DNA of 64,000 bases from contig NC_135896.1 of NCBI RefSeq assembly GCF_964194155.1, positions 62,496,001 to 62,560,000 of the forward strand. Direction: 5' to 3'. Numbering within the stretch: position 1 is the stretch's first letter; each line of letters opens with the position of its first letter. Made by a program: the position numbers and the translations under genes. Source of the stretch: Cetorhinus maximus. Taxonomy: Eukaryota. The notes beneath the pieces are model-generated. The model made no database searches. It was not told where the DNA came from and was given only the letters and a program-made list of their open reading frames with translations. Shown piece by piece: positions 22,651-64,000 of this stretch.

Positions 22651-22830
22651 TTGCTGAAAAGAGAAACAGGTTGCCAAAGCTTTTCATTTTGCACTCAACA
22701 GGACAGAGACAAGAATGCCAAATTTCAAATGATCACAGCAATTTGTACTACAGCAGAAAAGGGTACTGATTAGTTGGCAAGTCAACTGTTAATGACTGAT
22801 GTGTTGCCATGGAGAAAGCAATGGGGAACT
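22651..22830 (-). mobile_element. Single-arm relative of the hammerhead-bearing foldback element
   Basis: ta|ttgctgaa...aagcttttcattttgcactcaacaggaca...gtgttgccatggagaa colinear with 63156-63300. Confidence 0.75.
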
Positions 22831-61873: not shown

Positions 61874-63171
61874 ACCTAACCTTGATATTGCCACATTTGA
61901 TGTTACCATCCATCCTCTTTCAGCAGGATAGGTCAAGCATTCTAGGCCTCCTTCATGCCTGACATTGGTGCAGCTCTATATCAACCAAAAGTGGGCCAGG
62001 TTTACAGGTTGGGTGGATGATTTTAACCAAATTTCCTTTCTCCTGGATGAATTATGCAAGACACTGCATGCAGGAGTCAAACCAAGAAAAGACAAATCTT
62101 ATGCTCTGCAGGTATTCAAACTTATTATCACTGAAAGCTAGGAAATGAAGCCCAGTTGCCTACAGGATCTACATTTCAATCTTAAAACTGTTCAGAAGCC
62201 CCCAAAGTTAATTATTTTACCAGAACAATGTGTTACAGTAATACTGTGATGTTGAGAGATTGTTGTAATCATATTTCAAATGAGTTTTAAAGAATAAAAT
62301 AACAAAATATATAAAGATAAAAATCTATGCAAATTGATCAAAGTGGGGAAAAAATTCCAGAATGAAATTTTACTCTGCTTTGAAAAGTGGTACACCTTAA
62401 CTTTGAACATAAATGATCATGCTTAGCCATGTAACAGTATGTTATGAAAAATAATCCTTACATTTCCAATGCCTTGATGCAATGTATTCTGGGACGATGA
62501 TATCATCCTGGTTGGCTTATGTTCTATCGCTGCATCATAAAATTCTATACTGTAGTTGTACAATAAATCTTTCCACAGAACTTTGGCTCAGGGAAAAATA
62601 ATAAATATCCATTTTATTTATGAGCCAAGATTCTCTGGAAAATTTTACAGCATAGCTCCAGAATACAAGCTGGCCTCAATTATATCATCCTCCCTAAAAA
62701 CTATTGCATGAAGGAGAAGCAATAGCATCTCCTGCTGAAAATATTACAAGTTGGACTTCTCCAATGTGCAGCAGTATACAGTTCAAAACATATAGGAGGG
62801 AATTTTGTTGGAGAATAAGCCACTGCAATTTAAAACAATACAGCAACTTCTAAAATGCTTTATCAGATTACTAACTAATCTCATATGGAGATGCTCAGAG
62901 GAACTTCCTTCTGGTTTCTCCCAATTCGCTGCTGTAACTTCTGTGGAAGATCAGTGGTAACCTCAAATAGACATGTAAAGCTGCCAAATTTAAGGATATT
63001 CCCAGTGATGCTGCTTGGTACTATGGTCATGTGTATATCTCTGTAGAAACTATAAATCAATGGATTTCATTATTGCATGATCATTTCAATATATAATGTT
63101 ACTTTGTATCTTTATTAAAGAAAGAATTGTCATTTGGAAGTACAGAACTTGAGTATTGCTGAATAAAGAGA

Positions 63172-63210
63172 GATATCTAAGCTTTTCATCTTGCACTCAT
63201 CAGGACACTC
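63172..63210 (-). ncRNA. Minimal type I hammerhead ribozyme motif
   Basis: Minus strand: gagtgtc CTGATGA g-tgcaaga-t GAAA agct TA gatatc; stem I gtgtc/gatat, palindromic AAGCTT stem III, UH site. Confidence 0.72.
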
Positions 63211-63598
63211 GCAAGAATACCAATATAAGGGGGAAATGACAATTTATACTGTCTGTGAAGAGAGTGCTGATGGTGGCAAGTGGTGTTGCCATGGAGAATG
63301 CACCACTGATGATGACTGACAGTTAACTGCCAAACATTGTTTGAAATTTAAACCAGTGTGTACAGAGCCTGTTTCAACTAAACAAAATAAGTGACAGCCA
63401 TTCATTGACTCATTCCTCAGGGCAATGCCTTAACAAATCAGGGTCAAGCTGCCTGGTTTAAATTTCAAACAATGTTTGGCAGTTAACTGTCAGTCACCAT
63501 CAGTGCATTCTCCATGGCAATGCCATTTGCCAACCAATCAGCACTCCCTTCATATACAGTATAAAGCATTGTTTTCCCCCTTATATTGGTATTCTAGT

Positions 63599-63637
63599 GA
63601 GTGTCTTGATGGGTGCAAGACAAAAAAATTAGATATC
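63599..63637 (+). ncRNA. Mutated mirror copy of hammerhead motif
   Basis: gagtgtc ttgatgg gtgcaagac aaaa aaat ta gatatc; core substitutions, probably inactive. Confidence 0.5.
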
Positions 63638-63737
63638 TCTTTTTTCAGCAATACTAAAGAAAAAAAACAGTGGAAGATGATATTGAAGATATTCCATGTT
63701 AGAGATAAATAGGTGGTAGGTATGTTGTTTACAGGTT

Positions 63738-63970
63738 ATAGAATCATAGAATGATGCAGCACAAATTAAGACCATTCAACCCATGTGTCAATGCTTTGAA
63801 AGTGCTTTCCAGTTAGTCCCAAACCCCCTGCTCTTTTCCCATAGCCCAGAACGTTTTTCCTTTACAATTATTTGTTCAATTCCATTTTGAAAGTTATTAT
63901 TGAATCTGCTTCTTTTAGGCAGTGTATTCCAGATCATCACAGCTCACTTCATGATTTATTTTCCTCATGC
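63738..63970 (-). mobile_element. CR1 3' fragment
   Basis: atagaatcatagaat tail; gtattccagatc; similar to 22110-22360. Confidence 0.78.
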
Positions 63971-64000
63971 TATATAAAGCCAAGGGTCGCATTTGCTTTT

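Follow-up and report, generated by a model that had tools for sequence, protein, structure and literature searches.

The foldback of about 530 bp close to the right end of the window (the whole stretch of DNA analysed, 64,000 nucleotides) is very probably an old, dead, doubly 5'-truncated single insertion of an EN+ Penelope-like element (PLE) of the Penelope/Poseidon type. Both arms are PLE 3' ends placed head to head, the tail is one-sided, an 8-bp duplication surrounds the whole, and the junction is private to the locus. The features of the insertion are the following.

63116-63123, plus strand: left target-site duplication, TAAAGAAA, 8 bp exact, or 11 bp with one mismatch if run to 63126
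63125-63152, minus strand: PLE tail, 28 nt equal to the start of the element's ORF, at the left end only
63153-63356, minus strand: left arm, a 5'-truncated pLTR copy (unit positions 87 to end), 92% identity to the family majority
63357-63366, no strand: junction, 10 nt, unique in the genome and similar to element sequence just upstream of the unit
63367-63654, plus strand: right arm, a near-complete 3' unit (pLTR) without tail, 92% identity to the family majority
63534-63565, plus strand: promoter-like pLTR motifs of putative function, upstream of the ribozyme and common to the family
63655-63662, plus strand: right target-site duplication, TAAAGAAA, letters identical to the left duplication

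Arms, ends and junction

A long foldback with inverted arms had been reported in a first-pass annotation of this DNA, and its existence was borne out. The arms (63150-63356 and 63453-63654) align with a column identity of 87%, and the MFE of the foldback is -315.7 kcal/mol against a shuffle mean of -126 (z = -33). The CCAAT and TATAAA motifs said to point outward were also found, at 63534 and 63560. The separate spacer of about 100 bp drawn between the arms turned out to be part of the element: the segment 63367-63452 belongs to the right pLTR copy, of which it forms the 5' part, and is absent from the left copy. Read by eye, the first ~90 nt of the right arm apparently hold the final ORF codons. 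The innermost 44 nt of the arms (63313-63356 and their mirror) carry no mismatch, while elsewhere about 15% of sites differ; this possibly reflects conversion within the hairpin, or chance. An older copy of the same pLTR lies in the window at 22651-22782 on the minus strand; it is ~70% identical and tailless, and its hammerhead has decayed. To the right of the foldback, at about 63850-64000, there is a second, unrelated multi-copy repeat (contig depth is high).

The ends differ from those first proposed, namely TA flanks around a reconstructed empty site agTAct. The TA dinucleotides at 63154-55 and 63652-53 lie inside the family's own end motif, and the true ends consist of the 28-nt tail and the 8-bp duplication. 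The left end extends to about 63125, the family showing loose ends at 63125/63129, and the tail letters match at 20/21 positions at the left end compared to 10/21 at the right. Contigs of a second, related species bridge both junctions of the insertion; the insertion thus predates the split of that species. No empty site was seen, the contigs of that species carrying the insertion as well. A run guessed to be RNA matched only other copies of the family, the left flank being absent.

With up to 3 mismatches allowed, the 30-nt junction of the window was found once in the genome, and a 76-nt junction query disclosed no second place covering both halves among the best 40 of 526 candidates scored. 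A gapped pattern for junctions of the window type hit three places, each with a different linker. As these genome searches scored the best candidates (40 of 8524 for the foldback, 40 of 526 for the junction), a few diverged junction copies may escape them. The expectation that many copies would share ends, spacer and TA flanks was not supported, the genome search giving no shared-junction family. A junction unique to the locus points instead to the event that the first-pass annotation had itself named as contrary to its reading, a local inversion during PLE insertion.

The same annotation had interpreted the foldback as a discrete non-autonomous unit, either a MITE or a retrozyme. The first of these, a TA-targeting MITE made from two pLTRs and mobilised by a DNA transposase, would account for the long inverted arms, the length of about 500 bp and the TA at both arm ends as first drawn, and five other foldbacks of similar length do top the genome search. 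However, these foldbacks all have other junctions, as do the sister insertions at large, and the long copies examined with these same ends enclose pieces of a PLE ORF. The ends of the window insertion are asymmetric, and its duplication measures 8 bp in a family where this length is variable. A MITE is largely refuted by the absence of a TA duplication outside symmetric TIRs and, in the genome searches described, of any many-copy set sharing size, ends and interior, and we regard it as extremely improbable.

The parent family and its head-to-head copies

Searching the 3.99-Gb genome of the window for the foldback gave 8524 first-look candidates, the best 40 of which were scored; most match just a unit of ~293 nt, corresponding to window positions 63367-63659. 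An exact 33-nt ribozyme pattern occurs at least 530 times in the genome (reversed control, 0), a figure that is a floor for the copy number of the family. The copies have coding sequence upstream of the unit in common, and the unit continues upstream into sequence encoding a reverse transcriptase (RT) and a GIY-YIG endonuclease. The domains of the parent family were assigned through homologs. P0001, a stretch of 369 stop-free residues from one natural copy, had no Pfam match of its own. It is 50% identical over 98% of its length to P0002, which contains RVT_1 (E 8.5e-7, score 29.3, just under the cut-off of 29.6), and 48% identical over 89% to P0004, which contains GIY-YIG (E 4.5e-6). In the alignment, the RT is followed by a C-terminal GIY-YIG endonuclease with two Cys and two His (CCHH) and without a CX2-5CxxC linker. 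By domain order, CCHH and linker absence, which are the criteria of Craig et al. 2021 (PMC8557442), the protein sequence places the parent family among the EN+ PLEs of the Penelope/Poseidon type. The Neptune clade, considered first, was dropped for want of the CX2-5CxxC linker; CCHH and the missing linker set the family apart from both Neptune and Nematis. The endonuclease start resembles that of Perere_Smed, by eye only.

Full pLTR-ORF-pLTR copies are present in the same genome (L128, L131, L134-L136), with a period of 2.7 kb, and several of them have an inverted copy upstream. A search for autonomous PLEs with the same termini had been proposed as a check; the view of the arms as PLE terminal repeats bearing outward promoter motifs and a type I hammerhead with palindromic stem III proved right. 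In the full copies, the upstream unit continues through the tail into the ORF, with the first ATG 3 nt past the predicted ribozyme cut. Most of the 111 scored ORF matches are interrupted by stops, natural copies being mostly broken. At the pLTR-ORF joint of four loci (L101, L105, L108 and L118), the ribozyme is followed by a pyrimidine run that ends in CAG and resembles a splice acceptor, and ~100 nt inside the ORF there are two CAG/GTAAG motifs of donor-like sequence.

The inverted layout recurs throughout the family. Among 30 loci bearing the ribozyme pattern, taken in genome order regardless of layout (two of them being the two ends of one insertion), an inverted piece was found within 1.5 kb upstream in 17/30 and downstream in 0/30. 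A second sample, drawn by another motif and likewise regardless of layout, showed upstream inversion in 12/24 loci and downstream inversion in 1/24. A non-random sample of 142 loci yielded 36 distinct head-to-head pairs of 109-2763 bp, and all 36 junctions are different, the junction gap being at most 11 nt in 24 of them. A tail is present at exactly one end in 28/36 pairs, at both ends in one and at neither in seven. Target-site duplications could be scored in 23 pairs, after setting aside 9 pairs in which an end continues into the ORF, has suffered damage or is truncated at the edge of the locus, and 4 tailless ones; duplications scoring 8 or more were found in 16/23 pairs, compared to 6/506 mismatched pairs, with lengths of 6-16 bp. 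Some insertions (L108/L137, L022 and L026) are more complex: they contain several inversions, or a short palindrome that has a full pLTR on either side in head-to-head orientation.

These figures bear on the possibility that the window foldback arose from separate pLTR insertions, a later one landing within or next to an earlier one in opposite orientation. PLEs are said to enter or adjoin existing copies (PMC6765202), and mismatches between the arms amount to about 15% of aligned sites. Nevertheless, a single duplication surrounds the whole, the tail is at one end only, both arms are equally distant (8%) from the family majority, and the orientation is almost always head to head across the family samples, so that two separate events are very unlikely, if slightly less so than a MITE. 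Derived non-CpG variants are common to the two arms of the same insertion at 56/5312 sites, about four times as often as between different loci (549/197145), which fits one source or later conversion.

Integration and described PLEs

A single insertion of a PLE could have produced the foldback as follows. The GIY-YIG endonuclease would have nicked each strand of an AT-rich target, at positions offset by about 8-11 bp. The two nicks would then have primed reverse transcription from two internal start sites of the element, one yielding the tail and the other none. Both cDNAs, of ~230 and ~290 nt, would have ended early and then been joined at their far ends. If both nicks prime and the cDNAs are joined, the mirror image would arise at each landing rather than coming from a parent that was already a foldback. 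On AT-rich DNA, nicking and extension of both strands are reported for a Poseidon protein, with reverse transcription beginning at either of two internal positions that delimit the tail (PMC11167929). We give the detailed joining step of the two cDNAs an even chance of being correct; self-priming on the antisense template (PMC3846280) is a possible alternative for this step.

The first-pass annotation had recognised no described family with this architecture; the layout is in print (PMC8557442, PMC3846280, PMC4209133). EN+ PLEs of the Penelope/Poseidon clade (Craig et al. 2021, PMC8557442; Arkhipova et al. 2013, PMC3846280) share with the window family an RT followed by C-terminal GIY-YIG, CCHH and the linker-less arrangement, as well as pLTRs that are formed by partial tandems and contain promoter motifs. 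An inverted 5'-truncated copy and a one-sided tail of 30-40 bp are described for them (PMC8557442, Fig. 2 legend; PMC3846280), the same layout as in the window, and in both cases the one-sided tail equals the ORF start (PMC8557442, PMC3846280). Inverted pLTRs, mostly head to head, and duplications of 8-10 bp are reported in PMC3846280, and pairs of PLE hammerheads 100-700 bp apart on opposite strands by Cervera and de la Pena 2014 (PMC4209133). The window copy departs from the EN+ PLEs described in that it is reduced to two ends.

The mirror-image layout is thus well known for PLEs, and the locus does not represent a new family of mobile elements. Dead PLE stumps are numerous, and this one matters little by itself. 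That such stumps mimic MITEs is a useful caution. The family at large provides a natural data set for the unsolved mechanism of PLE integration, with dozens of head-to-head junctions, one-sided tails and duplications.

The hammerhead ribozyme

The two hammerhead sequences of the foldback, and the parts of the left one, are located as follows.

63173-63215, minus strand: type I hammerhead of the left arm, core intact, recognised by motif and family covariation; predicted cleavage
63208-63204 with 63177-63173, minus strand: left hammerhead stem I
63203-63197, minus strand: left hammerhead CUGAUGA
63194-63190, minus strand: loop of the 2-bp left hammerhead stem II
63215-63211, minus strand: left hammerhead pseudoknot 5' strand, pairing with loop II at 63190-63194
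63187-63184, minus strand: left hammerhead GAAA
63184-63179, minus strand: left hammerhead stem III palindrome
between 63178 and 63177, minus strand: left hammerhead predicted cut
63594-63636, plus strand: decayed hammerhead of the right arm; C3, A9 and G12 changed, stem III palindrome lost

The left-arm motif reads GTGTC-CTGATGA-GTGCAAGAT-GAAA-AGCT-TA-GATAT on the minus strand from 63208 to 63173, exactly as first transcribed. The claim that each arm carries a hammerhead was correct for the left arm, with its intact core; the right arm retains a remnant. A comparison with hammerhead models, which had been proposed as a check, gave no Rfam hammerhead match: in a scan of 62500-64000, hammerhead families were absent among the 12 matches at E<=10. 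The best match there was to a plant miRNA model, which responds to any long hairpin, and its score fell far short of the cut-off. Plain folding of the isolated left motif did not yield a hammerhead structure (z about +0.5 to +1.1), as is expected since the motif is pseudoknotted and of the dimer type.

The covariation check proposed alongside gave support. In a 12-row alignment, 8/11 pairs change on both sides. The covariation score is 0.57, compared to 0.25 in shuffles and at most 0.18 when the alignment is slid, and 0/500 shuffles reach it. Related PLEs on metagenome contigs (80 loci) have the same motif at the same position; their hammerheads have a covarying stem I, a stem II of 2 bp and a palindromic stem III, and the five bases 5' of stem I are paired with the 5-nt loop II. 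The latter pairing is found in 22/31 distinct cores versus 68/480 cross pairs. With one representative per family, chosen after the result for the 31 cores was known, it holds in 7/7 families (6 with five Watson-Crick pairs), and 0/42 cross pairs reach five. Covariation in these sequences supports a type I hammerhead and its three stems, the third one palindromic, in the family and in the left arm, not in the right arm.

Decay of the core was followed in 75 family copies sampled independently of the ribozyme pattern. The arms had been thought to derive from an ancestral C-GAAA through opposite CpG decay, and the copies agree: the key dinucleotide is CG in 12, TG in 29, CA in 27 and other in 7. 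The core is intact in 29/75. G12 is lost in 27/75 copies, about as often as the neutral partner change occurs (29/75), which gives no sign of selection on the core; its decay looks neutral across copies.

In the parent element, where the hammerhead lies between the pLTR promoter and the ORF start, it would probably cut as a dimer via its palindrome. The hammerhead copies of the foldback have no evident role: one copy is dead, and the other is on the opposite strand and would be paired in read-through RNA. In the predicted structure of a read-through foldback RNA the left core is paired, the inner five nt of CUGAUGA having a probability of being unpaired of at most 0.02. These observations weigh on the second form of the discrete-unit reading, an inverted-repeat retrozyme, whereby the foldback would be transcribed, cut by its two hammerheads and re-inserted as a unit by the PLE machinery. 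One intact core speaks for it, as do reports that pLTR sequences alone are movable in trans (PMC3846280) and that retrozymes derive from pLTRs (bioRxiv 2026.07.22.740005). Like the window foldback, metazoan non-LTR retrozymes comprise a pLTR-related unit of about 300 nt with a type I hammerhead and no full ORF, but they are direct tandems with ribozymes on one strand, whereas the window holds an inverted pair that is single-copy as a unit (PMC7229834; bioRxiv 2026.07.22.740005). No direct tandem units on one strand are present in it, and the two motifs, being on opposite strands, are never both sense in one RNA. With the predicted pairing of the left core and the lack of any sign of selection added to this, an inverted-repeat retrozyme has hardly any likelihood, and the hairpin is better seen as a dead PLE insertion.

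The minimal type I hammerheads of PLEs (PMC4209133) equal those of the window family in topology, in CUGANGA and GAAA cores, in the palindromic stem III and in their pLTR position. The window family differs in its 2-bp stem II, its 5-nt loop pairing 5' of stem I and the lack of an extra base before stem II; stems II have 3-8 bp in the rows of Fig. S3 of PMC4209133 that were examined, and the main text of that paper makes no mention of a pseudoknot. Short stems II stabilised by a pseudoknot between stems I and II are known from all three hammerhead types, in about 40% of examples (Perreault et al. 2011, PMC3088659). The window family differs from that set in being a PLE of an animal, with a stem III that is palindromic and of the dimer type; part of the analysis in PMC3088659 excluded type I examples that were highly repetitive. 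The pseudoknot of PMC11300833 has another topology than that of the window family. The literature searched contained no description of a pseudoknot in PLE hammerheads; we claim neither the pseudoknot nor the family as unpublished.

The start codon follows the predicted cut by 3-4 nt in the window family and two relatives (L148 and L163 among the loci), and by about 40-50 nt in two other relative families (L146, L151). The conserved N-terminal codons of the ORF are those of the tail. Elsewhere, a type I hammerhead cuts 7 nt before a viral start codon (PMC13725137). In an Anolis element the cut falls 26 nt after the start codon (PMC11167929), which argues against a general rule of cutting before the start, and the Poseidon hammerhead is dispensable for insertion in vitro (PMC11167929). 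We put forward tentatively, with doubts outweighing confidence, that the parent lineage has a hammerhead form not seen in the PLE literature examined, combining a 2-bp stem II, a covarying five-pair pseudoknot and a dimer palindrome, with the cut 3-4 nt before the start codon in three families. If true, cleavage would remove the capped leader and act as a translation switch for the PLE protein, which would offer a testable answer to the open question of PLE hammerhead function. With its pseudoknotted hammerhead beside the start codon, the family offers a concrete construct with which to examine translational control by PLE ribozymes. One relative family (L149, L152 and L153) has U in place of C3 in the core and keeps G8; several metagenome loci of these U-for-C3 relatives also have an inverted hammerhead upstream.
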